The translations under genes were made by a program, and so were the position numbers. Positions 13,563 to 40,508 of a stretch of 64,000 nucleotides of DNA are shown piece by piece. Position 1 is the stretch's first letter, and each line of letters begins with the position of its first letter. The stretch is from positions 436 through 64,435 of the IMG/VR virus record IMGVR_UViG_3300032291_002550; one strand, 5' to 3'. The notes beneath the pieces were generated by a model. It did no database searches and was not told the origin of the DNA. It saw only the letters and a list, made by a program, of their open reading frames with translations. This DNA is from a virus.

Positions 13563-13565
13563 GTT

Positions 13566-13985: not shown

Positions 13986-13997
13986 AAACATATAAGT

Positions 13998-14307: not shown

Positions 14308-14311
14308 AGTT

Positions 14312-14548: not shown

Positions 14549-14715
14549 AAAAGAATCAAATGGCAGCAGAAATGGTCAACAATTATATTGATAAAGTAAT
14601 TGAATCACTTACAGCACAAAGAGATAGTTTAAATGAACTTATCACAAACTGTGAAGAAATTAGAACGAATATATTAAATGAAATAAATAATACTACACAA
14701 ATTAATAATAAATAA
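14545..14715 (+). CDS. Small hypothetical protein (56 aa), not in the ORF track
   Basis: ORF MKKNQMAAEMVNNYIDKVIESLTAQRDSLNELITNCEEIRTNILNEINNTTQINNK with an ATGA overlap onto the upstream gene. Confidence 0.35.
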   Translation: MKKNQMAAEMVNNYIDKVIESLTAQRDSLNELITNCEEIRTNILNEINNTTQINNK

Positions 14716-14719
14716 AGTC

Positions 14720-15019: not shown

Positions 15020-15055
15020 TTTGGTTTTTACAGTTGTTTCTCTTATATTAATGAT

Positions 15056-16857: not shown

Positions 16858-16858
16858 A

Positions 16859-17356
16859 ATGGCCCAGTATAGTACATCATTAACAGAAAGATTTCCAGTA
16901 ACCGGTACTAAAGGACAAATCGGAGAAGAGTGGCTTAAGTCAATATTACAGTCATATGGTTATGAAGTAACTGATTATGCAGGTCAAGTAGAACATCAAA
17001 AGCGCGGTTATGACTTTAGTATTAAGAAACCAGAATGGTTACGAGAATATTATCTAGATTGTAAAAATAATTTGTATTGTGATTGGGAATTGCATTTTAA
17101 AATAGAGATTGAAGATCATGGAAAGCTCGGTTGGTTTTTTTCGAGCCGAGCTGATCGAATCTATCATGTAAACCCATATACTAATACCTATATAATGTAT
17201 GATTTAAATGAAATGCGTAAATTGGTAGTAGATGCCTTATTAACTAATAATACTACGTTATTTAAAAGAGTAGATTATAAAGGGGCAATTCTTCTGCAGT
17301 TTGATATTACTCAAAACAATAAAGGATTATATCCTATAACAATAAAAAAACATTAA
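16859..17356 (+). CDS. Hypothetical protein
   Basis: 165-aa ORF between folE and the DNA polymerase gene. Confidence 0.45.
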   Translation: MAQYSTSLTERFPVTGTKGQIGEEWLKSILQSYGYEVTDYAGQVEHQKRGYDFSIKKPEWLREYYLDCKNNLYCDWELHFKIEIEDHGKLGWFFSSRADRIYHVNPYTNTYIMYDLNEMRKLVVDALLTNNTTLFKRVDYKGAILLQFDITQNNKGLYPITIKKH

Positions 17357-22135: not shown

Positions 22136-22157
22136 AGCCCGAAAGGGCTTTTTTTAT
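22136..22157 (+). terminator. Rho-independent terminator
   Basis: agcccgaaagggct followed by T8. Confidence 0.75.
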
Positions 22158-22216
22158 GTTCTACATTAGGTTCTTTGAAATAATATCTTTATATTAGATA
22201 AAAAATAAGTTATAAA

Positions 22217-27254: not shown

Positions 27255-27971
27255 ATGAAGTATAGCACAGTAATAATATCAGACTTACATTTAGGAAGTA
27301 AAGCTTCTAGAAGAGATGACATACTAGAATTCTTAGATAAATTATCTACAGACACATTAATACTAAACGGAGATATTGTTGATGGGTGGTCTTTGCAAAG
27401 AGGAAGTAAATGGACTAAAAAAGATACTAAAATACTTAGAAGATTATTAAAGATATCTGAATCAGGGACTGATGTTATTTGGATTAGAGGTAATCATGAT
27501 GAATTTTTAAAAGAATTTATTCCATTTGATTTAGGAAATATTAAGATTGTTGAAGATTATATTCATCAATACGGTAAGACACGTTATTATATTTTTCATG
27601 GAGATGTATTAGATGTGTTTATTACAAAAGTAAAGTGGCTGGCTTATATTGGTTCTATTGGGTATGATATTGCTTTATGGATTAATCGTTGGTATAATCG
27701 TTGGAGAGTATGGAGAAAATTACCATACTATTCAATATCTAAGGATATTAAAAATGGTATTAAGAAAGCTACAAACTTTATAAATGACTTTGAAATAAAT
27801 GCTATTAAGTTAGCAAAGCAAAAAGGATGTAACGTAGCAATATGCGGCCATATTCATCAGCCATCTTTAAAGGATGGATATATGAATTCTGGAGATTGGT
27901 GTGAAAATTGTACAGCATTAGTAGAAACAAAAGACGGTAAATGGAAATTAATAGATTATCATAATAAATAA
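27255..27971 (+). CDS. Calcineurin-like metallophosphoesterase
   Basis: DLHLG, GNHDE and GHIHQP metal-ligand motifs. Confidence 0.75.
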   Translation: MKYSTVIISDLHLGSKASRRDDILEFLDKLSTDTLILNGDIVDGWSLQRGSKWTKKDTKILRRLLKISESGTDVIWIRGNHDEFLKEFIPFDLGNIKIVEDYIHQYGKTRYYIFHGDVLDVFITKVKWLAYIGSIGYDIALWINRWYNRWRVWRKLPYYSISKDIKNGIKKATNFINDFEINAIKLAKQKGCNVAICGHIHQPSLKDGYMNSGDWCENCTALVETKDGKWKLIDYHNK

Positions 27972-27972
27972 T

Positions 27973-28434
27973 ATGGAATTAATAAGCACGCATATATGTA
28001 AAGCATCAGATATTGGTATTCATAACAATATGTTCGGTGGTACATTAGTTGGATGGGTAGATGAAGCATCTGCAGTATATTCTGCACAAATTTGTGATAC
28101 GCCAAGAATGATTACTATTAAAGTAGATGAATTTATATTTAAGAAGCCTATAAAGTTGGGCAATATTATAAAGATTTATGGAAAAGTATCAGAATTCGGA
28201 AATACTTCTATAACATTATATATCGAAGCCAGAAAACATAATGTATATACAGGCATTCAAGAAGTCGTAACGCATACAAAAATGAAATTTGTGCGGATTG
28301 ACGATGAAGGAAATCCAATTCGTATATCTAATCGAGTAAAACAACGTTATCATAAAAGATTAAAGCAGTTCGGAAAAGGACTACTTTCTACAGAAGAACG
28401 ATTATTAGAAGAAGTTTCAGAGAAATCTAATTAA
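27973..28434 (+). CDS. Hotdog-fold acyl-CoA thioesterase
   Basis: MFGGTLVGWVDEASAVYS core typical of YbgC/4HBT thioesterases. Confidence 0.65.
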   Translation: MELISTHICKASDIGIHNNMFGGTLVGWVDEASAVYSAQICDTPRMITIKVDEFIFKKPIKLGNIIKIYGKVSEFGNTSITLYIEARKHNVYTGIQEVVTHTKMKFVRIDDEGNPIRISNRVKQRYHKRLKQFGKGLLSTEERLLEEVSEKSN

Positions 28435-28441
28435 ATGAATA

Positions 28442-28471
28442 GTAAGGAGTTAGTGAACCTAACTCCTTACA
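28442..28471 (+). other. Perfect 12-bp stem hairpin with a 6-nt loop and no T-tract
   Basis: gtaaggagttag-tgaacc-ctaactccttac. Confidence 0.6.
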
Positions 28472-28506
28472 TACTGAATATCAATACATTAAAATTATAA
28501 TAAAAT

Positions 28507-28550
28507 TTGGAAATATGAAATGTATTCCTTATCTTTAAGTATATTAAAAA
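28507..28550 (+). promoter_or_regulatory. Conserved intergenic element, copy 2
   Basis: ttggaaatatgaaatgtattccttatctttaagtatattaaaaaa. Mini-ORF MKCIPYL*. Confidence 0.6.
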
Positions 28551-28552
28551 AG

Positions 28553-28843
28553 ATGGCAAAGAAGATTAAAGAAGAAGCTATACCTAAAAAATCACTTAAA
28601 AAAGAAGTATCATATACAGATGATGAAGGAACAGATACTTGGATTTATAATGATAAAGGGCATCTTATTGAAGTAAAACTAGATTGGAATAAAGCATTTC
28701 TTAAAAAATATAAAGCAGATATCGAATATCAAGAATCATTACCTAAATCTAAAAGGCAATATCTTAATCCGGAAAATGGTAAGTTTGTTGGATATGCTCG
28801 AGCAAAAGCTTTAGGATTTTTTGAAGATGAAGATGATGAATAA
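28553..28843 (+). CDS. Hypothetical protein. Start corrected to the ATG downstream of the conserved element
   Basis: The track ORF begins inside the conserved element (MYSLSLSI). The ATG at 28553 (MAKKIKEE) follows the element, as at the other copies. Confidence 0.5.
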   Translation: MAKKIKEEAIPKKSLKKEVSYTDDEGTDTWIYNDKGHLIEVKLDWNKAFLKKYKADIEYQESLPKSKRQYLNPENGKFVGYARAKALGFFEDEDDE

Positions 28844-28862
28844 TAAAAATATTAAATAAATC

Positions 28863-29540
28863 ATGAAAAGAACATTATATTCGCGCGCGACCACAGGAAA
28901 GGTTTTAGAATGGACTATTGAAGTCGAATCTAATAAATATCGTACAATATCCGGTTATATAGACGGAGTAAAAACAACATCAGAATGGACTGTTTGCGAG
29001 CCTAAAAATATAGGAAGAGCAAATGCTACGACAGCAGAAGAACAAGCTATTAATGAATCAACAGCTATTCATCGTAAGAAAATGGAAAAGGGCGCATTTG
29101 AAAATATTAATGATATTGATACACCTATTTATTTCGAGCCAATGTTAGCTGCTAAATGGGAAGATTATAAAAATAAAATAGCATTTCCAGCATATTCTCA
29201 ACCGAAGTTAGATGGCTGTTTAAGTTATGATACGTTAATTAATACTGATAAAGGTAAGTTGATGATCGGAGATATTATTAATAATAATATCGATTGTTTA
29301 GTAGATACATATAATACCAATACCAATTTAATTGAACGTAAGAAAATTTTAAATAGAATGAAAAATGGTATTGATATTAATGAACAGCAACAAACTCAAT
29401 GGTATGAAATCGAAGTGGAAGATGGTCGAAAAATTAAAATTACCGGCAACCATCGAGTATATCTTCCGAAGTTACGGTGTTGGAGACGAGTAGATGAGTT
29501 AAATGAAAATGATATATTATTAAACTATTTTAAAAAATAA
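28863..29540 (+). CDS. lig: ATP-dependent DNA ligase, N-terminal fragment (N-extein through motif I KLDG) fused to the N-terminal half of a split intein
   Basis: Motif I PKLDG is followed directly by intein block A CLSYDTLI and block B ITGNHRVY. The ORF terminates after the intein-N region. Confidence 0.8.
   Translation: MKRTLYSRATTGKVLEWTIEVESNKYRTISGYIDGVKTTSEWTVCEPKNIGRANATTAEEQAINESTAIHRKKMEKGAFENINDIDTPIYFEPMLAAKWEDYKNKIAFPAYSQPKLDGCLSYDTLINTDKGKLMIGDIINNNIDCLVDTYNTNTNLIERKKILNRMKNGIDINEQQQTQWYEIEVEDGRKIKITGNHRVYLPKLRCWRRVDELNENDILLNYFKK
29217..29537 (+). mobile_element. Split intein N-terminal half (IntN, ~107 aa)
   Basis: Starts with Cys (CLSYDT) immediately after the ligase KLDG. 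Contains the TxxH block B (TGNH). Confidence 0.75.
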
Positions 29541-29589
29541 CCATCAACTTTTTGGTGTAATATAATAATTATAATAAATAAAGATTTAT

Positions 29590-30504
29590 ATGACACCTAT
29601 AGAAAAGTTACAACAGATAGAACTGAATACAGCAATTTTAAATTACCACGGTAATGATCATACAAGAAGAAAGTACATACGTGATATTATTACTGCTGAA
29701 TTACTTAAGTATTTAGTAATTGATAAAAAATATCCATCTAATTACATCGGAACATTGATTTCTGATATCATCGGTATACGAATAGATGCAGGATATATAA
29801 TTCATAGATGTAAAGAATTAAATATTAAAACATTTTCAATTAAAGAATCTGCTAACTTAAAATCAACAAAAGTAAGAAAGGCAGAAACATGTATAAAGAA
29901 ATATGGGTCATCAAATCCGTTAGGAAAACAAAGCCCGATATATAAAAAGCGCAATCAAACAGTCCAAGAAAAGTATGGTGTATCAAATGTATTTCAACTA
30001 GACTCTGTTAAAATGAAAACAAAAGATACGATGATAAAAAAGTATGGTGTATCAAATCCAGTATATATGGAAAACTATAAACGAAATTGTGGGCGTCGTA
30101 GTAAAATACATACTACAATAGAAACTCTCTTAATTGACTTAAATATACAATTTGAATCAGAAAAAAGAAATATGTTTTCTGCATTTAATAAATACTATAA
30201 TAAAATATATTCGCCTCAAGTAGACATCCTATTGAATGATTATAATATAGTAATAGAAATAAATGGAGATTTATGGCACGCAAATCCTAAAAAATATAAA
30301 GCAACTGACTTAATACCATTACGAATTGGACAGACTGAAGCCCAGATAATTTGGGCACGTGATGCTGCCAGAACAGAACAAATTAAATCATTCGGCTTCG
30401 AAGTAATTGAATTATGGGAGCATGATATTAAAACTAACTTAAGTATAATAAAAGAACAGTTATATGAAAAAATATATAAAAATAACAAAAATTACGAAGA
30501 TTGA
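29590..30504 (+). CDS. Homing endonuclease (HEG2) between the split-intein halves: KYGVSN repeats plus a C-terminal PD-(D/E)xK nuclease
   Basis: Repeats KKYGSSNP / EKYGVSNV / KKYGVSNP. C-terminal DILLNDYNIVIEINGDLWHANP resembles the nuclease core of HEG1 and HEG3. The 3' end overlaps the IntC ORF. Confidence 0.7.
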   Translation: MTPIEKLQQIELNTAILNYHGNDHTRRKYIRDIITAELLKYLVIDKKYPSNYIGTLISDIIGIRIDAGYIIHRCKELNIKTFSIKESANLKSTKVRKAETCIKKYGSSNPLGKQSPIYKKRNQTVQEKYGVSNVFQLDSVKMKTKDTMIKKYGVSNPVYMENYKRNCGRRSKIHTTIETLLIDLNIQFESEKRNMFSAFNKYYNKIYSPQVDILLNDYNIVIEINGDLWHANPKKYKATDLIPLRIGQTEAQIIWARDAARTEQIKSFGFEVIELWEHDIKTNLSIIKEQLYEKIYKNNKNYED

Positions 30505-30577
30505 TCCTGAAGTTAAATATGATCTTGAAATACAAGATAACCACAACTATTTTGCAAACGATATACTAGTGCATAAT
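30464..30577 (+). mobile_element. Split intein C-terminal half (IntC, 38 aa)
   Basis: Ends in block G NDILVHN, followed by the Cys+1 of the extein. Confidence 0.75.
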
Positions 30578-31315
30578 TGTCGTGCCATTGTTAAGAGTGA
30601 CGGTATGTGGACACGAAATGGTAAGCCTATTATATCTGCTCCGCATATATTTGAATGTCTTAAGCCGTTATTTGAAATTAATCCAGATCTTATTTTTGAC
30701 GGGGAACTTTATGCTGATAAATTTGCTAACGATTTTAATGCTATATGTTCATTAGTAAAGAAAACTAAACCAACAGCCGAAGATATTAACGAATCAAAGG
30801 AAAAGATTCAGTATCATGTATATGATTTACCGAGCTTTAATGCCACATTTGTTCCAAGATTCCAACATCTTCATAAAATGCTTACAAATTATCACCCGTC
30901 TATTGTTGTTGTACAAACAGAACAAGTAGACAATTTTAATGATGTAGATGCGTTCTACGAAGATTATATTTCTTTGGGATATGAAGGTCAAATGATACGA
31001 TTAGACGCTCAATATGAACATAAAAGAACAAAGTCTTTATTAAAGAATAAGTCCTTTATAGATGAAGAATATACGATCATTGATATTGAAGAAGGTAATG
31101 GAAACAAAGCCGGAATGGTAGGTTCTTTTGTATTTAAGAATGCTAATGGCAAAATATTCAATGCTTCTCCTAAGTTTAACTGGGGCATATGCCAACGAAT
31201 GTTAAACGATAGAGAATTATTAATCGGAAAAGAAGCTACGATTAAGTATTTTAATTTAACACCAGATAATATACCTAGATTTCCGTACGTAATAGCGATA
31301 CGAGATTACGAATAA
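30464..31315 (+). CDS. lig: Split intein C-terminal half fused to the DNA ligase C-terminal fragment (C-extein)
   Basis: After ...ILVHN, the extein CRAIVKSDG completes motif I KxDGxR. It is followed by motif III LIFDGELYA, motif IV EGQMIRLD and motif V LLKNKS. Confidence 0.8.
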   Translation: MKKYIKITKITKIDPEVKYDLEIQDNHNYFANDILVHNCRAIVKSDGMWTRNGKPIISAPHIFECLKPLFEINPDLIFDGELYADKFANDFNAICSLVKKTKPTAEDINESKEKIQYHVYDLPSFNATFVPRFQHLHKMLTNYHPSIVVVQTEQVDNFNDVDAFYEDYISLGYEGQMIRLDAQYEHKRTKSLLKNKSFIDEEYTIIDIEEGNGNKAGMVGSFVFKNANGKIFNASPKFNWGICQRMLNDRELLIGKEATIKYFNLTPDNIPRFPYVIAIRDYE

Positions 31316-31332
31316 AAAAACTTAAAAAAAGA

Positions 31333-31378
31333 TTAGGAAATATGAAATGTTTTCCTTATCTTTAAGTATATTAAAAAT
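31333..31378 (+). promoter_or_regulatory. Conserved intergenic element, copy 3
   Basis: ttaggaaatatgaaatgttttccttatctttaagtatattaaaaatt. Confidence 0.6.
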
Positions 31379-31389
31379 TAAAATTAGTT

Positions 31390-31587
31390 ATGATGAAATT
31401 TTTCAGTTGGATTAAAAACGACCCTTTCCTTAAAGGAATTCTACAAATAGCTTGTAATATTACTTTACTAGAATATGTTATTTTACCGATGCTTAATATG
31501 TCCAGTACAATATTATTCTTTCTAGGTATGTTATTAATATATCTCTTAATTGTAGTTAATATTCGAATCTTTAAAAAATTATACTAA
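31390..31587 (+). CDS. Small membrane protein
   Basis: 65 aa, hydrophobic. Confidence 0.4.
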   Translation: MMKFFSWIKNDPFLKGILQIACNITLLEYVILPMLNMSSTILFFLGMLLIYLLIVVNIRIFKKLY

Positions 31588-31601
31588 AAATAAAAACAAA
31601 A

Positions 31602-32429
31602 ATGAAAAATAAAATAAAATCAGTGTTAATGGTACTGGGTGCCATTTCACTACTTAGCTTAGGAAGTTGTTCACGTATTGACGCTGGACATGTAGGTATG
31701 AAAGTTTCTTACTTTGGAGATGACAAAGGAGTAAATGACATTGTGTATGTTACGGGGTGGACATTTTACAATCCTCTTACATCAACAGTTATTGAGTGGC
31801 CAACATTCGTTAGACACGTTGAGTATGTAGGAGAGCATGGGTTCGTTGTAAATTCAAAAGACGGAAGCGAATTTGCCGTAAATCCTATTATCAATTATAG
31901 TATCGTGCCGGATAAAGCTCCAGATATCTATAGAAAATATCGTAAAGATTTAGGTGATCTCGAAATAGCATTTTTAAAGACAACAGTCCAGGACGTATTT
32001 CGTGTCGCTGCTAATGAATTTAATGCAGATAGTTTAATAAGTAATAGACAAAGATTCGAGACGTTAGTAATGAAGGACTTACATAGTCGATTAACTTCGG
32101 AAGGATTCATGGTTCAGCAATTAACAAGTAACTTAGTTTATCCAGAATCATTTAAGAATGCGATTAATGCTAAGAATAATGCAGTACAGCAAGCTCTTCA
32201 GGCCGAGAATCAAGTAAAAACGGCAGAAGCTCAAGCTAAAATTAAAGTGGCTCAAGCAGACGGTGAAGCTCAAGCAATGTTAACGACCGCTCGCGCTGAA
32301 GCAGAAGCTAATAGATTAAGACAAACAACCTTAACAGAGAATTTATTACAGCAACAGTTTATTAATAAATGGGATGGTGTATTGCCTGTATATGGCCAAG
32401 TACCAACCTTATTTAAATCTATTCAGTAA
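31602..32429 (+). CDS. SPFH/band-7 (prohibitin/HflC-like) lipoprotein
   Basis: Lipobox LSLGSC. SPFH core with a C-terminal Ala/Gln-rich coiled coil (AEAQAKIKVAQADGEAQAMLTTARAEAEANRL). Confidence 0.7.
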   Translation: MKNKIKSVLMVLGAISLLSLGSCSRIDAGHVGMKVSYFGDDKGVNDIVYVTGWTFYNPLTSTVIEWPTFVRHVEYVGEHGFVVNSKDGSEFAVNPIINYSIVPDKAPDIYRKYRKDLGDLEIAFLKTTVQDVFRVAANEFNADSLISNRQRFETLVMKDLHSRLTSEGFMVQQLTSNLVYPESFKNAINAKNNAVQQALQAENQVKTAEAQAKIKVAQADGEAQAMLTTARAEAEANRLRQTTLTENLLQQQFINKWDGVLPVYGQVPTLFKSIQ

Positions 32430-32440
32430 TAAAACGGATA

Positions 32441-32513
32441 ACTCAGATGGCGTAATTGGTAACGCGCCCGTCCTGGAGATGGGAAGATATAGGTTCGAAT
32501 CCTATTCTGAGTT
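32441..32513 (+). tRNA. tRNA (73 nt). Anticodon loop CCUGGAG, so Pro(UGG) in the canonical register, but position 33 is C
   Basis: Hand-folded. Acceptor actcaga/tctgagt, D-stem gcgt/acgc, anticodon stem cccgt/atggg, T-arm atagg-ttcgaat-cctat. No encoded CCA. Confidence 0.6.
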
Positions 32514-32547
32514 CAAAAAAAAAATAACTTGCAAGTTATTTTAAATA

Positions 32548-32668
32548 GTCAGGTGGCGGAAAGGTATTAGTAGTGGTGAACGAAAATATCGTGGTAGACG
32601 CTAGTTAACAGACAGAGAGATAAAAGGAATGGTTTACTCTCATACAGGTTCGAATCCTGTCCTGACTA
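32548..32668 (+). ncRNA. Atypical tRNA-like element (121 nt) with a canonical acceptor stem and T-arm but a non-tRNA interior
   Basis: Acceptor agtcagg/cctgact and T-arm acagg-ttcgaat-cctgt are perfect. I could not fold the ~85-nt interior into D or anticodon arms. Confidence 0.35.
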
Positions 32669-32682
32669 CTAAAAAGAAAGTT

Positions 32683-32838
32683 ATGTCATCAGAAACAAAA
32701 AAAAGAAAGTCAGATAAAAAATTACATTGGGGTCGAGGTAGACATTTCATGAAATGGGTAGGTAAGGGCATAAAAGGACTTACTTATTTTACATCGTCTC
32801 AAAGACGAATAAATAATAAAATTGACTTAGAAGATTAA
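32683..32838 (+). CDS. Small basic protein (51 aa). Track ORF 32629..32838 trimmed to the aagttATG start
   Basis: MSSETKKRKSDKKLHWGRGRHF..., preceded by the conserved aagttATG context. The N-terminal part of the track ORF overlaps the tRNA-like element. Confidence 0.3.
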   Translation: MSSETKKRKSDKKLHWGRGRHFMKWVGKGIKGLTYFTSSQRRINNKIDLED

Positions 32839-32843
32839 AATAT

Positions 32844-32935
32844 AGTCAGGGGGTAATATAGGCAGCTACCCATCCGGAGTGGGGTGAGTTAAGAAGTGGG
32901 TTTCTTAAATGCAGGTTCGAATCCTGCCCTGACTG
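32844..32935 (+). ncRNA. Atypical tRNA-like element (92 nt), paralogous to the 32548..32668 element
   Basis: Same acceptor agtcagg/cctgact, and T-arm gcagg-ttcgaat-cctgc. The interior holds a 7-bp hairpin ttaagaa-gtgggt-ttcttaa and a possible tccggag loop, but no clean cloverleaf. Confidence 0.35.
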
Positions 32936-32949
32936 CAAAAATTAAAAGT

Positions 32950-33525
32950 ATGAAAGTAATATTCTTAGATATAGACGGCGTTCTTAATTGTCAAGATGCA
33001 TATCATAATAATGAATGTAAATATGTTGATTTTACATTAAATGATGTTGAAGACTTTTATCAGACATTTTGTTCTTGGAGTAAAATGTGGTTGAATAAAT
33101 TAATTGATGAGACTGGAGCTAAAATAGTAATATCTTCTACTTGGAGACATTCAGGTATTGATTTCATGAAAAAAGTTTGGGAATTAGAAGAAATGAGTGG
33201 CGAGATAATTGGGTTGACTCCTCACTTAAAAAGAGCCGATAACTATACTATACCTCGTGGATGTGAAATTGATTTTTACTTAAACAATACATTAAACTTT
33301 AGCCATATCAATTGGGATAAAACTATACAACAAGAATATATGTATAAATCAGGTATTGAAAACTATATTATAATTGATGATGATTCTGATATGTTGTATG
33401 GTCAAAGACATCATTTTATAAATGTATTACCTTCTCCAAGAAACACAAAAGGATTTAATGAAGAACATTATAAACTTGGAATGGAGATGTTAAGTAAAAC
33501 AGTAATTGATTTAAATTATGAATAA
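32950..33525 (+). CDS. HAD-superfamily hydrolase (nucleotidase-like). Start corrected from the track ORF
   Basis: HAD motif I FLDIDGVLN and ISSTWR. The track ORF's N-terminus overlaps the tRNA-like element. The ATG at 32950 has an aaagtATG context. Confidence 0.6.
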   Translation: MKVIFLDIDGVLNCQDAYHNNECKYVDFTLNDVEDFYQTFCSWSKMWLNKLIDETGAKIVISSTWRHSGIDFMKKVWELEEMSGEIIGLTPHLKRADNYTIPRGCEIDFYLNNTLNFSHINWDKTIQQEYMYKSGIENYIIIDDDSDMLYGQRHHFINVLPSPRNTKGFNEEHYKLGMEMLSKTVIDLNYE

Positions 33526-33925
33526 AGAATTTATCCCTTACGAAGAAGCATTAGCTTTAAAAGAATTAGGATTTGACGAACCTTGTTTTGGATATTTTTA
33601 TCATGAAAATATGTTTACAAAATGTCATCCAAATATTTACCACTCTAATACATTTACAGAATGTGATACGTATGAAGAAATACCACTAGATTCATGTAAA
33701 ACACCACTATATCAACAAGCATTTAGATGGTTTAGAAAGAAACATGGATTAAGTTCTTATGTGAGACTCATAAACTTGCAAGGCAAATCTTATTGGAAGA
33801 TTGATAAAGTCGAAACGGAAGATAAAATTAAAGGATATTCTTCTTTTGAAAATAGTTACGAAGGATCGGAGCTAGAATGTCTTAAAAAATTAATAGAGTT
33901 AATAACAATAAAAAATAATGAATAA
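33518..33925 (+). CDS. Hypothetical protein, tandem paralogue A
   Basis: MNKEFIPYEEALALKELGFDEPCFGYF...LECLKKLIELI, near-identical in layout to the next ORF. Confidence 0.5.
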   Translation: MNKEFIPYEEALALKELGFDEPCFGYFYHENMFTKCHPNIYHSNTFTECDTYEEIPLDSCKTPLYQQAFRWFRKKHGLSSYVRLINLQGKSYWKIDKVETEDKIKGYSSFENSYEGSELECLKKLIELITIKNNE

Positions 33926-34349
33926 AGAATTTGTACCATATGAACAAGCACTGGCTTTAAGAGATTTAGGATTTGACGAACCTTGTCTAGGGTATTTTGA
34001 TATACAATATAACGGTATTACTCAATCAAGTAGCGGTCGTTTAATTTTAGGTAAAGACCCCGATACATTGCAATGTACTAAAAAAATGCTATATATTCAT
34101 GGACAATTAAAAATTCTAGCGCCGACATATTCACAAGCATTTAAATGGGTTAAAGATAAGTATAGTTTATTCCACGAAATACAGATAGATAGGACAGCTG
34201 AGCCTAAATATTGGAATAATATATTCAAATATGAACATTTTGGAAATTATGAAGAACTTAGAGTAGGAGAATGGTTCTTACACAGAACTCAAGAAGACGC
34301 AGAGTTAGATTGTCTTAAAAAATTAATAGAAATAGTAAAAACAAAATAA
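33918..34349 (+). CDS. Hypothetical protein, tandem paralogue A'
   Basis: MNKEFVPYEQALALRDLGFDEPCLGYF...LDCLKKLIEIV. Confidence 0.5.
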   Translation: MNKEFVPYEQALALRDLGFDEPCLGYFDIQYNGITQSSSGRLILGKDPDTLQCTKKMLYIHGQLKILAPTYSQAFKWVKDKYSLFHEIQIDRTAEPKYWNNIFKYEHFGNYEELRVGEWFLHRTQEDAELDCLKKLIEIVKTK

Positions 34350-34350
34350 T

Positions 34351-34941
34351 ATGAAAGTAATATTCTTAGATAATGATGGCGTAATATGCCTAGCCCATAA
34401 TTGGGGTTCTAGATATAAAAAACGTGTTGCGGCAGATCGTAATCCGCACATGGATAGTAATTTACAAAATGTCGAATATCGTTTTGATAATTTTGATACT
34501 AAAGCAATTGAAGTATTAAATGAAATCTTAAAAAAGACTGATGCAGAAATAGTTGTTAGTTCTGATTGGAGATTACATGCAACCTTAGAGGAATTAGGTA
34601 AATATTACCTGTCTCAAGGTATTATTAAAGCGCCTATTGCTATTACTTCGAGGACTGAAGATATAGACCCCGGAGCATGGAATTTACTAAGATATAGAGC
34701 AGATCTGGAGCTAGAACGTTCGATTGAAATACTAGATTGGCTAGATAAACATCCTGAGGTAACGAATTGGGTTGCAGTTGATGATTTAAATATGTCCGTT
34801 AACTATTTATCAGGACTTTTTTCTAATAAAGATGAGTTAGATAAAAAGCCCGGATTGACAAATTTCGTTCATACTAAAAAATCTAGTGAAGGAATAAAAC
34901 AAGTGGGCATTAAGGATAAAATATTAAATTATTTGATATGA
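34351..34941 (+). CDS. HAD-superfamily hydrolase, paralogue of 32950..33525
   Basis: MKVIFLDNDGVI and SSDWR. Confidence 0.6.
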   Translation: MKVIFLDNDGVICLAHNWGSRYKKRVAADRNPHMDSNLQNVEYRFDNFDTKAIEVLNEILKKTDAEIVVSSDWRLHATLEELGKYYLSQGIIKAPIAITSRTEDIDPGAWNLLRYRADLELERSIEILDWLDKHPEVTNWVAVDDLNMSVNYLSGLFSNKDELDKKPGLTNFVHTKKSSEGIKQVGIKDKILNYLI

Positions 34942-35153
34942 CATACATTCTTACAATAATAATCGTATTACTTATAATATTGATTCCTTATGTAATAGGA
35001 AATACAATTTATATAAAATATGATGTAGATTATAATTTTATAGAAGCATGGCTGTTAGGTTCAGCTATAATAATGTTAACAATCAGTATTTGTATGTTAT
35101 TTTATTATATAGGAGTTATGTTTTTAAACGAACTTCGCGTGCAACTTAAATAA
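34938..35153 (+). CDS. Small membrane protein
   Basis: 71 aa with 2 TM. Confidence 0.4.
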   Translation: MTYILTIIIVLLIILIPYVIGNTIYIKYDVDYNFIEAWLLGSAIIMLTISICMLFYYIGVMFLNELRVQLK

Positions 35154-35157
35154 AAGA

Positions 35158-35200
35158 TTAGGAAATATGAAATGTTTTTATTATCTTTATGTAAATTAAA
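35158..35200 (+). promoter_or_regulatory. Conserved intergenic element, copy 4
   Basis: ttaggaaatatgaaatgtttttattatctttatgtaaattaaaaat. Confidence 0.55.
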
Positions 35201-35205
35201 AATAT

Positions 35206-35424
35206 ATGCAGCACGAAATTAATCTTTCATATACATTCGAAGAAATGGTTCGATTTTTAGAATCAAAAAAATATCTAATCTCCAGGCTTAATACAAGTTC
35301 TGGAGAATTATCATGGGCTCATAAATTTAATACTCCAGTACCTGATCCTGAAATGATTACGTATTCGAATATTAAAATGAAATTCGAGCAAGAATTTAGA
35401 ATACACTTATTAACAGTCAAATAA
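35206..35424 (+). CDS. Hypothetical protein
   Basis: 72-aa ORF directly after a copy of the conserved element. Confidence 0.45.
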   Translation: MQHEINLSYTFEEMVRFLESKKYLISRLNTSSGELSWAHKFNTPVPDPEMITYSNIKMKFEQEFRIHLLTVK

Positions 35425-35428
35425 TATT

Positions 35429-36223
35429 ATGAATAAAGAAAATAAAAAACTAGCCTTTAAAGGGTTTGATCGAGATTTAAAATGTAAAAATGTTCAATTC
35501 CGAATAGGAGATACGTTTACAACAGCTCATGCTAGCACTAATAAACCTCCAGCATTATGTTCAGCAGATGGTTATCATTATGGAATTACATTAAAAGATG
35601 TATTTGCTCATTATCCAGATAATAAAAGTAATCGTTTTTGTATTGTAGAAGTATCAGGGTTATATTCTGAAGATGGCCAAAAAGGTACAACGACATCTTT
35701 AAAGATAATTAGAGAATTATCAAAGGATGAAGTTATTAGACAAACGCTAGAAGAAAGTTTTGACTTAGAAACTTTAAAAGATATTCAAACACAATATCCT
35801 TTATGTCATGTAGGTGGAAGTATTGGATTATTTTTACATGGTGTTCGTTTAAAACGTTGGGCAGATAGTGGCTTATCTGATTTAGATTTAATCTTCCCTT
35901 ATTATATTGCTCCAGAAAGTACTGATAAATTAACATTAGATTTTTCAGCTGATAAAACATCTGGAAATGATTTTGATTATACGTTTTCCGTTAACGGAAT
36001 AAAGGTTGATGTAAAGATTGATAACATGCAGCGCTATGAATTAATTACATATAAGGGCTTTAAATATAAAGTAAGTCCTTTATTAACTATTCTTGAAGCA
36101 AAGATGAAATATGCCTTATTAGGACAATCAAAACATTCATCTGATATCAAAGAAATGATTTTGGGGCATAAAGAACCAAATATTATAGATATGAACTTAG
36201 ATGATCTTTTTTCTGGTTTATAA
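35429..36223 (+). CDS. Hypothetical protein
   Basis: 264-aa ORF. Confidence 0.45.
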   Translation: MNKENKKLAFKGFDRDLKCKNVQFRIGDTFTTAHASTNKPPALCSADGYHYGITLKDVFAHYPDNKSNRFCIVEVSGLYSEDGQKGTTTSLKIIRELSKDEVIRQTLEESFDLETLKDIQTQYPLCHVGGSIGLFLHGVRLKRWADSGLSDLDLIFPYYIAPESTDKLTLDFSADKTSGNDFDYTFSVNGIKVDVKIDNMQRYELITYKGFKYKVSPLLTILEAKMKYALLGQSKHSSDIKEMILGHKEPNIIDMNLDDLFSGL

Positions 36224-36225
36224 AT

Positions 36226-36723
36226 ATGAATAACGAACAACAAGAATTATTGGGTGATGCTTATGAAAATTGGTGTAAACAATTTGAAGTTGACCCGAAT
36301 AATTTTAATGGCGAAGAATTAGCGAATGGGCATAACGACCAATGCTGGGGTTATCCAATATTAGACCATGTTAAGCCTACATCAAAAGAATATAAAAGAG
36401 GACAAATAAATGCTTATTTAGAGGGTAAAGCCGAACAACCTTTTTTCTATTTAACACAAGAAGAATTTATCAACAAATGTAAAAACGATACAGAGTTCTC
36501 TGAAAGGTGGGGATTACAGATTGAAGAACGAGAGTTGAGTTTGGATGAAAGAGTTCATATTTTTAACTCAAAAATGATTAAGGAAGAAATTAGAACTCAA
36601 ATAGCAACGATTGGTATAGATAAGAGTTATTGGAAAAAATCATTAGAAGTAACTAAACATAATATACCAACACGCGCGGTCACAATAACATACAAAGATA
36701 AAAGTATAGAAAGTTATGAGTAA
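36226..36723 (+). CDS. Modular hypothetical protein containing peptide modules A and B that are also inserted into thymidylate synthase
   Basis: LTQEEFINKCKNDTEFSERWG (module A) then RELSLDER...NIPTRA (module B). Both recur in ORF 37330..38559 with ~80% DNA identity at the module ends. Confidence 0.5.
   Translation: MNNEQQELLGDAYENWCKQFEVDPNNFNGEELANGHNDQCWGYPILDHVKPTSKEYKRGQINAYLEGKAEQPFFYLTQEEFINKCKNDTEFSERWGLQIEERELSLDERVHIFNSKMIKEEIRTQIATIGIDKSYWKKSLEVTKHNIPTRAVTITYKDKSIESYE
36451..36513 (+). repeat. Module A, copy 0 (DNA repeat; the other copy is 37639..37701)
   Basis: ttaacacaagaagaatttatcaacaaatgtaaaaacgat... versus ttaacacaagaagaattcatcaacaaaatcaaaaccgat... Confidence 0.6.
36529..36678 (+). 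repeat. Module B, copy 0 (the other copies are 37951..38094 and 38287..38424)
   Basis: Conserved termini cgagagttgagtttggatgaaag ... aatataccaacacgcgcg. Confidence 0.6.
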
Positions 36724-36967
36724 AGTATATGTTAGATGGAATCCATTATATGAAAGAGTGGTATGTGTTCATTCGTCAGATGAATTAGAATGTGAAAAGT
36801 GCATTGAAGAACGAGAAAAAATAAAAAATACCCCATATACATTAAATGGTAAGTGGTTTGAAATTGATAGTAATAATAACCTATGTTATTGTGGAGATCC
36901 TGTTGATATGACTAATCCAGATTGTGTGGAATATAATTTATGTAAAGAACATTCAATGGATGTTTAA
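36716..36967 (+). CDS. Small Cys-rich protein
   Basis: 83 aa with CxxC-like pairs (CEKC, CYCG, C..C). Confidence 0.4.
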   Translation: MSKVYVRWNPLYERVVCVHSSDELECEKCIEEREKIKNTPYTLNGKWFEIDSNNNLCYCGDPVDMTNPDCVEYNLCKEHSMDV

Positions 36968-36994
36968 AATAAAAGAAAGTTATGAGTAAATAAA

Positions 36995-37291
36995 ATGAAT
37001 AATATACATAACGATTTAAATCATGTCTTAAATAAAGGTAATGGTATTGCATTAATTGTATCTATGGTAGAATGTCCTAAATGTGCTAAAGATATATGGT
37101 TAGAAATGGGAAGTCATTGTGGTTTTGACGCTAATTTAGATTTCGCAATTGACAATTATTGTTATGAGTGTTTTGAACCCATTAAATGTGTCTTTGACAT
37201 TGATGATATTAAAGACACCGGGTTTATCACTATATCAGATTATGGGAGTTTTACATCTAATAATTTTATAACAAATAAAAGTAAATTATGA
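36995..37291 (+). CDS. Small Cys-rich protein
   Basis: 98 aa with CPKC, CYEC. Confidence 0.4.
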   Translation: MNNIHNDLNHVLNKGNGIALIVSMVECPKCAKDIWLEMGSHCGFDANLDFAIDNYCYECFEPIKCVFDIDDIKDTGFITISDYGSFTSNNFITNKSKL

Positions 37292-37329
37292 GTGAAGAAA
37301 TAAAAGAAATATATTATAAAAAATAAAAG

Positions 37330-38559
37330 ATGAATAAATTAGATAAAGATTATTGTGACCTACTTCAAGATATTTTGGAAAATGGGACAAAAAAAGAAAC
37401 TCGTAATGGTGGAACTATAAGTGTTTTTGGTAGACAAATAAGACATAAAATGTCCGATGGATTTCCTTTGCTTACGACAAAGAAAATGTATATGAAAGGA
37501 ATTATAACTGAATTGTTATGGTTCTTACGTGGAGATACTAACATTAAATACTTAGTTGATAATAATTGTCATATTTGGGATGGTGATGCTTATAAGAATT
37601 ATTATAATAGAATGTGGAGTCTTAATCCTCTACCCAAGTTAACACAAGAAGAATTCATCAACAAAATCAAAACCGATGATGAGTTTGCTAATAAGTGGGG
37701 TGAGTTAGGACCAATTTATGGTAAGCAATGGAGAAGTTGGGAAACTAAGTATATTAAACCCAAAAGTCAATATGCGATTAAACCTAGTAATGGATGGCCA
37801 GATTCTATCAATATCGACCAAATCGCAAACCTAATCAACGACATTAAAACAAATCCAGACTCAAGACGATTAATGGTTAATGCTTGGAATGTGGGTGAAC
37901 TGGATTCGATGGTTCTTCCACCTTGTCATTATGGATTTCAAGTTTATACAAGAGAGTTGAGTTTAGAAGAGAGATGTGATGAATATATTAAAAGACACCC
38001 GAAAGAAACAAACGATGGAGTGTTAAATTACAAATGGATTGGTGATAATTTATGTACTCATGAAGATTACGATAAATGGAATATCCCAAAACGAGCAATC
38101 TCACTAATGTGGAATCAACGAAGCGTAGATACATTTTTAGGACTTCCTTTCAATATAGCATCTTACGGATTGTTGTTAGAAATCATTGCTAAGGCAGTTA
38201 ATATGGTTCCTGAAGAGTTAATTGGTAACTTAGGTGATACACATTTATATTTAAACCATATTGAACAAGCGAAGGAACAAATTGGGAGAGAATTAAGTTT
38301 AGATGAAAGGATTGATTTAGCATCATTAGATATACATTTCGATCCGTTTGATTTCGGCGTTGGTATGATATCTGCTGAGCATTCTCATAAAGTATGTGAT
38401 GATTATGGTATTCCAAAACGAACAAGACAACCTTATCCATTGCCAACATTAAGAATCTCTTCAGGTCCTTTAGATGATATTGCTCATCACGAAATTATGG
38501 ATTTTATATTAGAAAACTATCAATCACATCCATCAATTAAAGCTCCTTTGTCAAATTAA
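37330..38559 (+). CDS. thyA: Thymidylate synthase (ThyA) with three in-frame peptide-module insertions
   Basis: GELGPIYGKQWRSW, catalytic PPCH, DTFLGLPFNIASY (Asn conserved, so dUMP-specific), GDTHLY, C-terminal HPSIKAPL. 409 aa because of ~21-, 48- and 46-aa insertions. Confidence 0.85.
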   Translation: MNKLDKDYCDLLQDILENGTKKETRNGGTISVFGRQIRHKMSDGFPLLTTKKMYMKGIITELLWFLRGDTNIKYLVDNNCHIWDGDAYKNYYNRMWSLNPLPKLTQEEFINKIKTDDEFANKWGELGPIYGKQWRSWETKYIKPKSQYAIKPSNGWPDSINIDQIANLINDIKTNPDSRRLMVNAWNVGELDSMVLPPCHYGFQVYTRELSLEERCDEYIKRHPKETNDGVLNYKWIGDNLCTHEDYDKWNIPKRAISLMWNQRSVDTFLGLPFNIASYGLLLEIIAKAVNMVPEELIGNLGDTHLYLNHIEQAKEQIGRELSLDERIDLASLDIHFDPFDFGVGMISAEHSHKVCDDYGIPKRTRQPYPLPTLRISSGPLDDIAHHEIMDFILENYQSHPSIKAPLSN

Positions 38560-38575
38560 TAGATATTTATTATAA

Positions 38576-39115
38576 ATGATAAGTTTATCAATATTAGCTA
38601 CTGAAATATATCAAAAACTAGGAAAGAAATATCCTAATATAAACGAGCGTAAAAAAGCTACTAAAGATTATATATTAACAGAAATAACGCAATGGGGTAT
38701 TAAACAATCTTCCTTTGCATCAGGAGATATTTTATCTTTCAGGCCTGCAGAATTTAAAGGTACAGCTGACAGCAGTCCATTTGAAGTAAGATTAATTTAC
38801 GATTATGATGATAATTTTTGGGAATTAAAGTTTGGAAATTTAAATGCACCTGATGATGAAACACAATTTGGGTGGGCTCATGAAGATCCATATAAACTTC
38901 AAAAAGCTTTATTTTTACAAAATGTATTAAATAAAGAAATTGTTCCGCTTTTTAACGACCCAGAATTCATAGGTATTAGATTTGCTCCGTACGATGGAGA
39001 CGGATTAGCAGACCAACGATTAAGTTATTTTCAGAACATGTTTAATAAGTTAGATAAAGGCAAATTCAATATTAAAAAGTTCGAAGATACCTTTTATATA
39101 ACTAAAAAAGTATAA
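38576..39115 (+). CDS. Hypothetical protein
   Basis: 179-aa ORF. Confidence 0.45.
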   Translation: MISLSILATEIYQKLGKKYPNINERKKATKDYILTEITQWGIKQSSFASGDILSFRPAEFKGTADSSPFEVRLIYDYDDNFWELKFGNLNAPDDETQFGWAHEDPYKLQKALFLQNVLNKEIVPLFNDPEFIGIRFAPYDGDGLADQRLSYFQNMFNKLDKGKFNIKKFEDTFYITKKV

Positions 39116-39151
39116 TCAAATTAATAAAAAATTTTAATGTATTGTAAATTA

Positions 39152-39175
39152 GGGACTTAGGTCCCTTTTTTACTT
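39152..39175 (+). terminator. Rho-independent terminator
   Basis: agggac-ttag-gtccct followed by ttttttac. Confidence 0.75.
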
Positions 39176-39190
39176 TTTGATTGTTTATTT

Positions 39191-39229
39191 GAATTGTTTT
39201 CCTTATCTTTAAGTATAATAAGAAATAAT
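39191..39229 (+). promoter_or_regulatory. Conserved intergenic element, copy 5 (3' half only)
   Basis: ttttccttatctttaagtataataagaaataat, directly after the terminator and before the ATG at 39230. Confidence 0.5.
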
Positions 39230-39433
39230 ATGATATCTTCGAACTTTTTACAAATAGCTACAATGTTTAGCAACTCATTTATCGGCATTAACGATTATCA
39301 GAATGATTGGAAAGAAAGAATAAAACAGCAATGGCAAGAATCTAAATCTTTGCCTAGAAAACAAAAAAAAGCTAAAAGAAAGGAATTGAACCTGGATTGG
39401 AGCATTGCTAATTATAACCCGTTTAATTTTTAA
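39230..39433 (+). CDS. Small hypothetical protein. Start corrected to 39230
   Basis: MISSNFLQIATMF... The track ORF starts inside the conserved element. Confidence 0.4.
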   Translation: MISSNFLQIATMFSNSFIGINDYQNDWKERIKQQWQESKSLPRKQKKAKRKELNLDWSIANYNPFNF

Positions 39434-39668
39434 AGATATGGAATCTTTTAAGTATTTAAAAACTTATCAAAAACAATTAATAATAACAGTATCTACTTAT
39501 TTTATATTGTATATAAGTAAAACATTTATTATGTGGGAATTTGAAAATCCATTTAAATGGTTAATAGAAATGCCTACATATTCAGTAGGTGCGAGATTTG
39601 TAATATTACTTAGTTATAGTATATATCATAGTGTAGTATATGCGTTTATAAAATGCTTTGAACCTTAA
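39405..39668 (+). CDS. Small membrane protein
   Basis: 87 aa, hydrophobic. Confidence 0.4.
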   Translation: MLIITRLIFKDMESFKYLKTYQKQLIITVSTYFILYISKTFIMWEFENPFKWLIEMPTYSVGARFVILLSYSIYHSVVYAFIKCFEP

Positions 39669-39680
39669 ATTAAAAATAAT

Positions 39681-39938
39681 ATGATAACAATAATAATAAT
39701 TTTAGCAGTATACTTACTGTCAGCGTATGCATCTTATAAATTTACGCAAATAGCGCACTTTCATGAAAATGGGAGGTTTAATAATCTCGAGCCTGAATTT
39801 GATGATTTACTTATCACTTTTATGCCAATTGTAAATACAATATTAGCTATAGTATTCTGGATTGACTCTCCATACAGAAAATCAGAGTCTAACAGAATAT
39901 CCAATTTTTTCAAACCAAAAAATAAACAAATAAACTAA
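39681..39938 (+). CDS. Small membrane protein
   Basis: 85 aa, hydrophobic. Confidence 0.4.
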   Translation: MITIIIILAVYLLSAYASYKFTQIAHFHENGRFNNLEPEFDDLLITFMPIVNTILAIVFWIDSPYRKSESNRISNFFKPKNKQIN

Positions 39939-39945
39939 ATCAATT

Positions 39946-40428
39946 ATGCAATTAAAATTAAACTCATGGTACGTACAATTATGGAATTATACTTACCCAG
40001 AAACAGTCCCAAACAATTTATGTCCTTTATTTTGGAAATTAGTAATAGCAATATTGTTATTTCCTATTAATATTGTATTACGAATTCCTGTTAATATAAT
40101 GAACTTATTCACTAAAAACAAAGTAGAGCGCGGCGATGCTAGATCTGGTATAGGATTTGGTATTTATGCAATAATTATTGGAACAGCATTTATATTAACT
40201 TGTTTATATAACTATATTTTATGGGCAATTAATGCTTATAGTTATGATAACGGATGCGCGTCTTTAGGCGGACTATTTTTAGTAGTTGGGGCATTCTTTA
40301 TTATTAGACATTATTGGTTAACGTATAATACAGGTTATAAAATAGAACATACAGTATCAAATAATATAGTAGTAAATTATACTAAATCTTGGTATGAAAA
40401 TCATTGCCCTAAAATTAATTGGAAGTAA
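39946..40428 (+). CDS. Membrane protein (4 TM)
   Basis: 160 aa, hydrophobic. Confidence 0.4.
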   Translation: MQLKLNSWYVQLWNYTYPETVPNNLCPLFWKLVIAILLFPINIVLRIPVNIMNLFTKNKVERGDARSGIGFGIYAIIIGTAFILTCLYNYILWAINAYSYDNGCASLGGLFLVVGAFFIIRHYWLTYNTGYKIEHTVSNNIVVNYTKSWYENHCPKINWK

Positions 40429-40508
40429 ATAGTATATATTAGTTATACGAACGTATAAAGTATTTCACTAAGTTGTTAGATAATTATAAAAAATAATCTA
40501 ATAATTTA

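Follow-up and report, generated by a model that had tools for sequence, protein, structure and literature searches.

A conserved element of 45 nucleotides (nt) recurs ahead of genes in a stretch of viral DNA from the IMG/VR database (record IMGVR_UViG_3300032291_002550, positions 436 to 64,435), and it is probably a phage promoter that depends on a multi-subunit RNA polymerase with a sigma factor. The whole stretch of 64,000 nt is called the window here, and coordinates refer to it unless another genome is named. The polymerase would most likely be that of a Flavobacteriia (Bacteroidota) host. The copy at the center of this analysis lies on the + strand at 28506-28550, where the exact pattern matches and a weight matrix gives 57 bits. 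The original prediction had offered several readings of the element: a promoter with near-leaderless messenger RNAs (mRNAs), a translational operator or RNA hairpin, and a small open reading frame (ORF). The promoter is favored by a fixed gap between two boxes, by copies in front of transfer RNA (tRNA) genes, and by the same layout in the Flavobacterium phage immuto; the operator, hairpin, and mini-ORF readings find no support.

Of the seven copies in the window, six are strong and one is weak; all are intergenic, on the + strand, and oriented as the genes are. The pattern GGAAATNTGAAATGTNTT matches exactly on that strand at 9995, 28509, 31336, 35161, and 48320, just where full copies had been predicted, and none of 100 shuffled sequences held any match. 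Its 3' core, TTATNTTTAWGTA, has six exact matches in the window (39203 is added) where 0.35 would be expected. A matrix trained on the five full window copies scores these at 47-57 bits and the copy at 39180, which was left out of the training, at 36 bits; the weak copy at 47307 receives 15 bits, compared to 11 bits for the best background match. Matrix scores, exact-pattern counts, and shuffles together exclude chance as the origin of the copies, and the worry that they could be divergent, random AT-rich sequence is laid to rest by motif statistics far above chance. Two loci had been described as half copies. This is right for 47307, where only the 5' half is kept, but not for the one placed at 39191, which is part of a nearly full copy (39180-39224) that retains TTG, the 3' part of the spacer, and the entire 3' box.

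Along the 45-mer, T(T/A)GG occupies positions 2-5, behind an A-rich upstream tract, and is separated by a 19-nt spacer from TATCTTTA at positions 25-32, after which comes (A/T)GTA. In the 28506 copy, the predicted -33/-35 box is TTTGG at 28506-28510, the spacer occupies 28511-28529, and the predicted -7/-10 box, TATCTTTA, lies at 28530-28537. The gap of 20 nt between TTG and TA equals that of a classical -35 hexamer, 17 nt, and a -10 hexamer, the arrangement of a sigma-dependent promoter. Among the seven window copies, the upstream box has TTG three times and TAG four times, and orthologous copies interchange TTAGG, TTTGG, and GTTGG. There is an enrichment of A at about 41 and 50 nt upstream of the predicted start of transcription, and many copies carry an (A/T)TGAAA box 12 nt upstream of the 3' box.

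Conservation among the family copies continues through TATCTTTA(A/T)GTA and drops after the A at position 36. Since conservation ends there and start codons are placed there in relatives, we infer that transcription starts at this A, which is 3 nt past the box (position 37 is 4 nt past it). In the 28506 copy, the start would be the A at 28541, with a leader from 28541 to 28552 and the likely true start codon at 28553. The leaders are short and A-rich, lack a Shine-Dalgarno sequence, and often contain TAAAA before the start codon. They are predicted to span 9-22 nt in the window, and no more than 0-2 nt in some of the relatives, so the idea of near-leaderless mRNAs has survived. Across the family, the distance from position 36 to the first ATG opening an ORF of at least 30 codons clusters at 0-2 nt (19 copies) and at 15-22 nt, with a mode of 19. 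The start codon falls exactly on position 36 in the ligase genes of the related IMG/VR contigs L012 and L064, in an exonuclease orthologue in L010 (the window counterpart starts at 47343), and in gp238 of immuto, whose annotated start is 20739. The ligase there shares the MKRTLYSR / MKKTLYSR N-terminus with the window gene at 28863, and the L012-type junction reads TATCTTTAAGT-ATG. A start codon at the predicted start site in several relatives would imply leaderless mRNA.

A first sigma-70 model, in which (A/T)TGAAA served as the -35 box and TATAWT as the -10 box, was rejected. It needs a 19-nt spacer and fails where a start codon replaces TATAWT, and the start codons at position 36 in relatives rule out TATAWT as a -10 box. 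A general sigma-70 and terminator scan returned 87 promoter-like sites compared to 86 expected, which is uninformative at 30% G+C, and the element copies were not among the best 60 of the 87 sites. Gene prediction is affected by the element as well, as had been suspected: the called ORFs at 28520, 39194, and 48331 begin inside it, and their likely true starts are the in-frame ATGs at 28553, 39230, and 48361. The orthologue of the 28553 gene in L012 is without the upstream ATG and keeps ATGGCAAAG.

The 3' end of the element also resembles a late promoter of T4, whose consensus, TATAAATA, is read through gp55 and lies about 10 nt before the start site. In a T4-type late promoter, gp55 would read the TATAATAA / TATATTAA part of the element. 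However, the TATAWT part is the least conserved, and a start codon takes its place in the ligases of L012 and L064, the exonuclease of L010, and gp238 of immuto. In the 48317 copy, a start 6-7 nt downstream would lie within the start codon (48361) or past it, and the downstream genes are those of replication, nucleotide metabolism, and tRNAs rather than late genes. We give a late promoter next to no credence. Separately, TATA-repeat-rich sequence (TATATTATATA, TATAATTATATATAAAT) is found upstream of the element-free genes at 3888, 8862, 19926, 29590, 42409, and 62587, and these regions could be a second promoter class, possibly of the T4 late type.

The element is not confined to the window. 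A scan of IMG/VR with the exact pattern found the core in 12 loci, and two looser scans together with a matrix search yielded 117 distinct copies at about 50 loci. Copies can be dense, as in L053 and L057, which have 10-11 of them per 11-12 kb ahead of small ORFs. This family was collected with patterns derived from the element, and the sole test unbiased toward the 5' box is a 3'-anchored search of IMG/VR with TTATCTTTAAGTATAWTA only. Among its 95 distinct matches, T[TA]GG stood exactly 20 nt upstream of TATCTTTA in 32, compared to at most 3 matches at any other offset, and TTG peaked at the same offset (28 matches). The remaining matches look like chance matches within coding sequence. The 20-nt gap between the boxes is constant over about 110 distinct copies. 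The spacers are wholly different across phage groups (for example GGAAATATGAAATGTTTTCC, GGATCGCATTGATTTTTTTC, and GGATAATTGAAATAAAATGC), but both boxes, the (A/T)GTAT, and the A-rich leader persist. Within TAT(C/A)TTTA, the positions T-12, A-11, T-8, T-7, and T-6 are invariant in the six strong window copies and 48 aligned family copies.

In relatives, the element is also found 13-35 nt upstream of tRNA genes. Position 36 is at 1178 in L063, with a tRNA-Gly gene at 1192; at 9389 in L008, with tRNA-Phe at 9406; and at 7150 in L079, with tRNA-Gln at 7185. The tRNA-Gly and tRNA-Phe cases recur in L102. A promoter can account for such copies, but a translational operator or a leader peptide cannot.

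This bears directly on the proposal that the element is a translational operator or an RNA hairpin within the mRNA, of the T4 RegA or gp32 type, that controls the downstream gene. Like the RegA operators of T4, the element is AU-rich, lies next to start codons, and belongs to a T4-related phage. The dyad GGAAA...TTTCC that had been pointed out is present in window copies, and the segment 31327-31392 folds better than shuffled sequence (z -2.1). Yet for the other five window copies, folding is not more stable than that of shuffled sequence (z -0.7 to +0.4), and there is no covariation between positions 4-8 and 19-23: 70.0% of the cells are paired compared to 70.2% after shuffling, 297 of 500 shuffles are as good, and a partner slid by one column pairs equally well. 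The 39180 copy retains the 3' arm TTTCC and has lost the 5' arm. The apparent dyad is mostly the GG of the upstream box and the CC adjoining the downstream box. Terminators directly upstream of several copies suggest, moreover, that the element is often not transcribed from upstream at all. Nor does it resemble a RegA operator in its two-box DNA layout or its place before tRNA genes, and a scan of roughly 50 window ORFs, including the 119-amino-acid (aa) ORF after the polymerase gene, revealed no homologue of RegA. A search of Rfam gave no family match to the element, with tRNA-Pro as the sole known RNA family in the window. An operator or hairpin is, in our judgment, highly unlikely.

Even less can be said for the 7-codon mini-ORF (MKCIPYL) as a translated leader peptide that regulates the downstream gene, a role we find barely conceivable. 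The mini-ORF is intact in four window copies and had been taken as conserved, but its ATG and in-frame TAA are both kept in only 17 of 110 distinct family copies. At the start position, 57 copies have TTG and 20 have ATG, the remainder having other triplets; the stop position is TAT in 29. If transcription starts at position 36, the mini-ORF also lies upstream of the transcript. The accompanying suggestion that selection acts on the nucleotides and not on the peptide is borne out.

The promoter reading also accords with what is known of Bacteroidota. The primary-sigma promoter of this phylum has a -33 TTTG and a -7 TAnnTTTG, and the -7 element of F. johnsoniae is T-12 A-11 H H T-8 T-7 T-6 G-5 (TAHHTTTG, where H is A, C, or T), with a near-invariant G at -5 and transcription starting 4-5 nt after the element (PMC6847099). 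Host leaders average 33 nt, and genes have A-rich upstream regions without Shine-Dalgarno sequences (PMC6847099), with a TAAAA motif (PMC2483708). TATCTTTA fits five of the six near-invariant -7 positions (T-12, A-11, T-8, T-7, and T-6), its -10 and -9 positions are not G, and a TTG-type box lies about 20 nt upstream. The predicted start is 3-5 nt past the box, and the leaders are A-rich with TAAAA and are without a Shine-Dalgarno sequence, as are window start codons, which have only A-rich sequence upstream. In contrast to the host promoters, all window copies have A for G at -5, the upstream box is often TAG, conservation runs on through (A/G)GTAT at the start site, and the predicted leaders, at 0-22 nt, are shorter than the host average. 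A separate site at 48655-48684, ahead of the gene at 48717, has host-type boxes: TTGG, 19 nt, and TATTTTTG, with G at -5.

A phage with a known Flavobacterium host carries predicted promoters of the same layout. In the first 100 kb of immuto (vB_FspM_immuto, NC_055915; host Flavobacterium sp. LMO8), TTG-N20-TAHHTTT[AG] matches 31 times on the + strand and 6 times on the - strand. Of the 31, 28 continue into (A/G/T)(A/G/T)TA; an ORF of at least 25 codons begins 0-28 nt downstream of each, and at the sites checked its start is the annotated start of a coding sequence. The consensus reads AAAAnAG-TTGC...TTCnTATaTTTAGgTATcaAtAattAAaA. Most sites fall in a dense run at 60.9-76.2 kb, where about 20 near-identical predicted promoters (TTGC, 17 nt, TATATTTAGGTATCAATAATTAAAAC) each precede a small hypothetical ORF, and this run has the look of an early region for host takeover. 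It was not found described in the literature searched, where the motif strings and the immuto and Mel-JY01 (see below) promoters likewise returned nothing relevant.

The immuto run and the window element share TTG, 20 nt, TAT(A/C)TTTA(G/A)GTAT, an A-rich leader, and ATG, with A at -5 throughout; in both, some start codons lie at the predicted start site, and the sites are on the coding strand ahead of small ORFs. They differ in the sequence of the spacer, in the TTGC of immuto instead of T(T/A)GG, and in the immuto leaders, which are mostly 25 nt. Given the shared layout, the window element appears to be one group's version of a promoter type present in a phage of known Flavobacterium host. 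The element is almost certainly a promoter with this two-box layout, and as such of an ordinary kind.

Gene content links the two phages as well. Immuto shares with the window the gene order exonuclease, DnaB, ribonucleotide reductase small subunit, and ribonucleotide reductase large subunit, along with Que genes, GroEL, and sugar genes. The only homologue among GenBank phages of a 625-aa window protein (40509-42386) is in immuto. The DNA polymerases differ, that of immuto being of family A and that of the window of the T4-type family B. The absence of Shine-Dalgarno sequences, the A-rich TAAAA leaders, TTT at -8 to -6, the immuto homologue, the gene order, and the promoters together point to a Flavobacteriia host.

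By its polymerase, the closest cultured relative of the window is the Microcystis phage Mel-JY01. Its genome (PP395634.1, 53198-95738) has a repeated TTG-N20-TAnnTTTG upstream of many genes, for example ...TTTCGTAAATTTGTA. The motif is the canonical Bacteroidota -7 box, followed by AGGA-like ribosome-binding sites, which is unexpected for a phage reported from a cyanobacterium. Sequenced cells gave no further clue to the host. The element pattern matched only four times in bacterial and archaeal genomes, with unrelated flanks and at 30-54% G+C. These matches were judged to be due to chance, so the element was not borrowed from a sequenced host. GenBank phages gave no nucleotide match to the element, only three chance matches in Streptococcus phages.

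Repeated promoters of this sort have a known counterpart in the PeSL (promoter-early stem-loop) cassettes of T4-like phages (Arbiol et al. 2010, PMC2839356; Comeau et al. 2014, PMC4122927). PeSLs contain sigma-70 boxes (TTGACA and TATAAT or close variants, 17 nt apart) as well as a Shine-Dalgarno sequence, and recombination between repeated promoters has been proposed for them (PMC4122927). Early timing and circle-mediated exchange also belong to the PeSL picture. In both systems, short and highly similar promoter units, here preceded by a stem-loop at some copies only, are repeated through a T4-related phage genome. Here there are 6-7 near-identical copies per 64 kb, in a genome with T4-type polymerase and clamp-loader homologues. 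Both kinds of unit cluster upstream of ORFs that are small or variable, and both are found where close relatives differ by insertions, deletions, or gene swaps. The 17-nt spacing fits too, but the boxes, T(T/A)GG and TATCTTTA (TTGGAA/TTAGGA, TATCTT), do not, and there is no Shine-Dalgarno sequence. The stem-loop is also found at only four of the six window copies and in about a quarter of the wider family. The element would work like a phage early or middle promoter of the PeSL-cassette kind without being a strict member of the PeSLs.

The early promoters of T4 itself are another parallel. They exist in many near-identical copies with about 40 bp conserved and A-rich upstream tracts, and they serve small early ORFs and tRNA genes. 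The element shares these features, its small ORFs being only presumably early, and differs in its box sequences and in the host phylum. Early or middle timing is likely for the element, since the genes downstream are small ORFs, nucleotide-metabolism and replication genes, and tRNAs.

Hairpins precede many copies. Of the six strong window copies, four (9992, 28506, 31333, and 39180) have one with z below -2 on their upstream side, as have 29 of 113 family copies. At 9939-9971, upstream of the 9992 copy, the hairpin (-12.4 kcal/mol, z -4.2) is followed by T-rich sequence. At 28442-28470, after the gene 27973-28434 and upstream of the 28506 copy, it has a 12-bp stem (-10.8 kcal/mol, z -3.2) with no run of T behind it on the + strand. 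A third lies at 31278-31307, upstream of the 31333 copy (z -2.3), and the fourth, directly upstream of the 39180 copy, is a predicted intrinsic terminator at 39151-39173 (stem GGGAC-TTA-GGTCCC, then TTTTTT; z -5.4). Those at 9939, 28442, and 39151 are on the + strand. The earlier statement that several copies directly follow terminator hairpins is therefore right about the hairpins but too broad about termination: in the stretch scanned for a G+C-rich stem and then a run of T (27500-40500, which contains neither the 9992 nor the 48317 copy), the one hairpin to qualify as a + strand terminator is that at 39151-39166. Since many copies directly follow a hairpin or terminator, each copy may start a new transcription unit.

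The copies may also mark how these phages exchange genes, since gene order in relatives breaks at them (window compared to L009, L012, L064, L004, and L006). L009 is 89-99% identical to window 1449-10255, and at the place of the single 9992 copy of the window it has two copies, with about 1 kb of additional small ORFs between them. A 72-aa ORF stands ahead of QueD in L009, and the left junction falls inside the element, after TATATTTAA. In L012, L001, and L064, the element is fused to the start of the ligase gene, and the 96-aa ORF (28553-28843 in the window) is elsewhere with an element copy of its own. In L004, the 96-aa ORF is followed by a terminator and element and then by the 31390 gene, the ligase block between two copies being absent. 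Near-identical copies could thus act as, or at least mark, the boundaries of gene cassettes gained, lost, and moved between related phages; they may cause the exchanges or merely survive at cassette edges.

One could go further and consider the element mainly a site of recombination or mobility, the target of a homing endonuclease or a site-specific recombinase, with incidental promoter features. The breaks in gene order and the two HNH-type endonuclease ORFs in the window would suit such a site. But the HNH ORFs do not adjoin most copies, and the copies are always oriented as the genes, at a constrained distance from start codons and the 5' ends of tRNAs. The fixed two-box layout is common to the distantly related immuto, where it forms a regular run ahead of ORFs. 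Recombination between repeated promoters, as proposed for PeSLs (PMC4122927), suffices to explain the breaks. A dedicated recombination site is very improbable.

Several points weigh against the promoter reading in the form given here. Promoter activity and the start site are predictions from sequence. Every window copy and all 28 immuto sites have A at -5, and G is found there in only a few distant IMG/VR copies (L169 and L211). TAG replaces TTG in the upstream box of four of the seven window copies. The host is deduced as well, and the closest relative by DNA polymerase, at 41.6% identity, is a phage reported from Microcystis. Conservation of the spacer within the window's group is far above what a sigma-type promoter needs, which could reflect an extra factor binding there or merely a recent spread of the copies. 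Finally, breaks in gene order at the copies are no proof that the copies caused the rearrangements.

Some of these points would be explained if the promoter needed a phage factor, either a pair for activation and sigma appropriation like MotA and AsiA or a phage sigma factor, and belonged to a middle class. Such a factor would recognize the conserved spacer (GGAAATATGAAATGT) and the phage-specific TATHTTTA-RGTAT box. The A in place of the near-invariant host G at -5 (in all window copies and the 28 immuto sites) and the frequent TAG instead of TTG would follow. So would the distinct, internally conserved spacer types that coexist on single contigs such as L053, and the (A/T)TGAAA box of many copies, 12 nt before the 3' box, is at about the position that the MotA box has in T4. 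Against this, orthologous copies swap TTAGG, TTTGG, and GTTGG freely, which suggests that these forms are equivalent. The spacers differ wholly between groups and the two boxes stay, as a plain sigma-type promoter predicts, and the dense immuto run at 60.9-76.2 kb looks early, and early regions have to be active ahead of all phage protein synthesis. A scan of roughly 50 window ORFs turned up no transcription factor, whether sigma, MotA, AsiA, or another, a negative of little weight since the window covers only 64 kb and has many ORFs without a family. We regard a required phage factor as unlikely. A more ambitious proposal seems equally doubtful. It holds that TATHTTTA-RGTAT is a promoter grammar specific to Bacteroidota phages, with A for the host G and group-specific spacers in immuto and at about 50 IMG/VR loci, and that a phage protein, a counterpart of MotA/AsiA, redirects the host polymerase to it. 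A subset of the transcripts would be leaderless, which is rare in the phylum, and the repeats would drive cassette shuffling.

If the element is a sigma-type promoter, changing TATCTTTA to TATCGGGA should cost activity, and swapping the GGAAA/TTTCC arms should matter little. The practical value is in annotation, since the element would show where transcription units begin in an uncultured lineage of phages that has T4-type replication genes together with immuto's gene order. The signature T(T/A)GG-N19-TATCTTTA(A/T)GTA can be used to find related phages in metagenomes. Current understanding is not overturned, but questions are raised, open to direct tests in the cultured pair of immuto and its host, about the A instead of the host G at -5, leaderless mRNAs in a phylum free of Shine-Dalgarno sequences, and promoter-driven exchange of cassettes.

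The other copies in the window, all on the + strand, vary in small ways. The copy at 9992-10036 (TTAGG ... TATATTTA, matched by matrix and exact pattern) has its predicted start at 10027 and is the predicted promoter of QueD (10039) and the 7-deazaguanine gene block. That at 31333-31377, also matched both ways, has its predicted start at 31368 and is followed by a 65-aa ORF (31390), a lipoprotein-like gene, and tRNA-Pro (32441). The copy at 35158-35202 is a TATCTTTATGTA variant with a predicted start at 35193, ahead of a 72-aa ORF at 35206. At 39180-39224 the 5' part of the spacer is altered (ATTGTTTATTTGAATTG...), and the predicted start is 39215, ahead of a 67-aa ORF at 39230. The copy at 48317-48361 (GTTGG...) would start transcription at 48352 and give a 9-nt leader before the 79-aa ORF at 48361. 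In the weak copy at 47307-47351, the 5' half, TTAGGAAATA, is intact and the 3' box is TATAATTA; the exonuclease gene start at 47343 is one base past its position 36. A possible diverged copy (+ strand; TTG, 21 nt, TATATTTAAGTA) is found at 11976-12011, before the 12024 gene. A possible degenerate copy at 22166-22195 (+ strand) has TTAGG, only 14 nt instead of the 20-nt box gap, and TATCTTTA; it was seen by eye, having been missed by the ungapped matrix, and has a terminator (22136-22155) before it and a gene (22217) after it.

The window has about 30% G+C, and all of its convincing ORFs are on the + strand. It encodes GroEL, a DnaB-type helicase, both ribonucleotide reductase subunits, dUTPase, thymidylate synthase, a family B DNA polymerase of the T4 gp43 type, clamp-loader subunits of the gp44/62 type, an ATP-dependent DNA ligase, and nucleases, as well as 7-deazaguanine synthesis genes (QueD, QueE, and FolE) and sugar-modification genes. 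This content identifies it as the replication and nucleotide-metabolism region of a large phage. GenBank phages gave no nucleotide-level match to the region, whereas IMG/VR contigs are 75-99% identical to it; UViG 3300017917_001910 is among the IMG/VR relatives. For the polymerase and clamp loader, identity to the proteins of Mel-JY01, a pelagiphage, and cyanophages is only about 40%.

In the window, the gene for DNA ligase is in two pieces. Its N-terminal part is at 28863-29540 and its C-terminal part at 30464-31315, with an HNH-type endonuclease ORF at 29590-30504. L012, L001, and L006 join ligase 28863-29215 directly to 30587-31318, which points to an insertion of about 1.37 kb in the window. 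A search of the split ligase against Rfam gave no signal of a group I intron even at an E-value of 1, and the insertion could be that of a free-standing homing endonuclease or an unrecognized intron. A second ORF resembling an HNH or homing endonuclease, at 1812-2816, lies between GroEL and the 5'-3' exonuclease gene.

The stretch 46909-47342 has 434 bp without a + strand ORF and a 126-aa ORF on the - strand (46913-47293), and it may hold the window's only candidate reverse-strand gene or be non-coding. Just downstream of the 9992 copy, 10039-17356 holds the block of QueD, QueE, and the GTP cyclohydrolase FolE (7-deazaguanine, queuosine-type), which hints at DNA modification, as does immuto, where DpdA is present in addition. 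In the tRNA region (32430-32973) there is one intact tRNA-Pro (32441-32514), with T-arm-like remnants at 32642-32679 and 32909-32946 and an odd ARAGORN call at 32844-32936. Relatives (L063, L102, L079, and L008) have 18-24 tRNAs and a transfer-messenger RNA gene at the corresponding place, and the array looks eroded in the window genome. Next to it, 32974-34941 contains two tandem paralogous gene pairs, 32974-33525 with 34351-34941 and 33518-33925 with 33918-34349, with stretches that are 76-84% identical.

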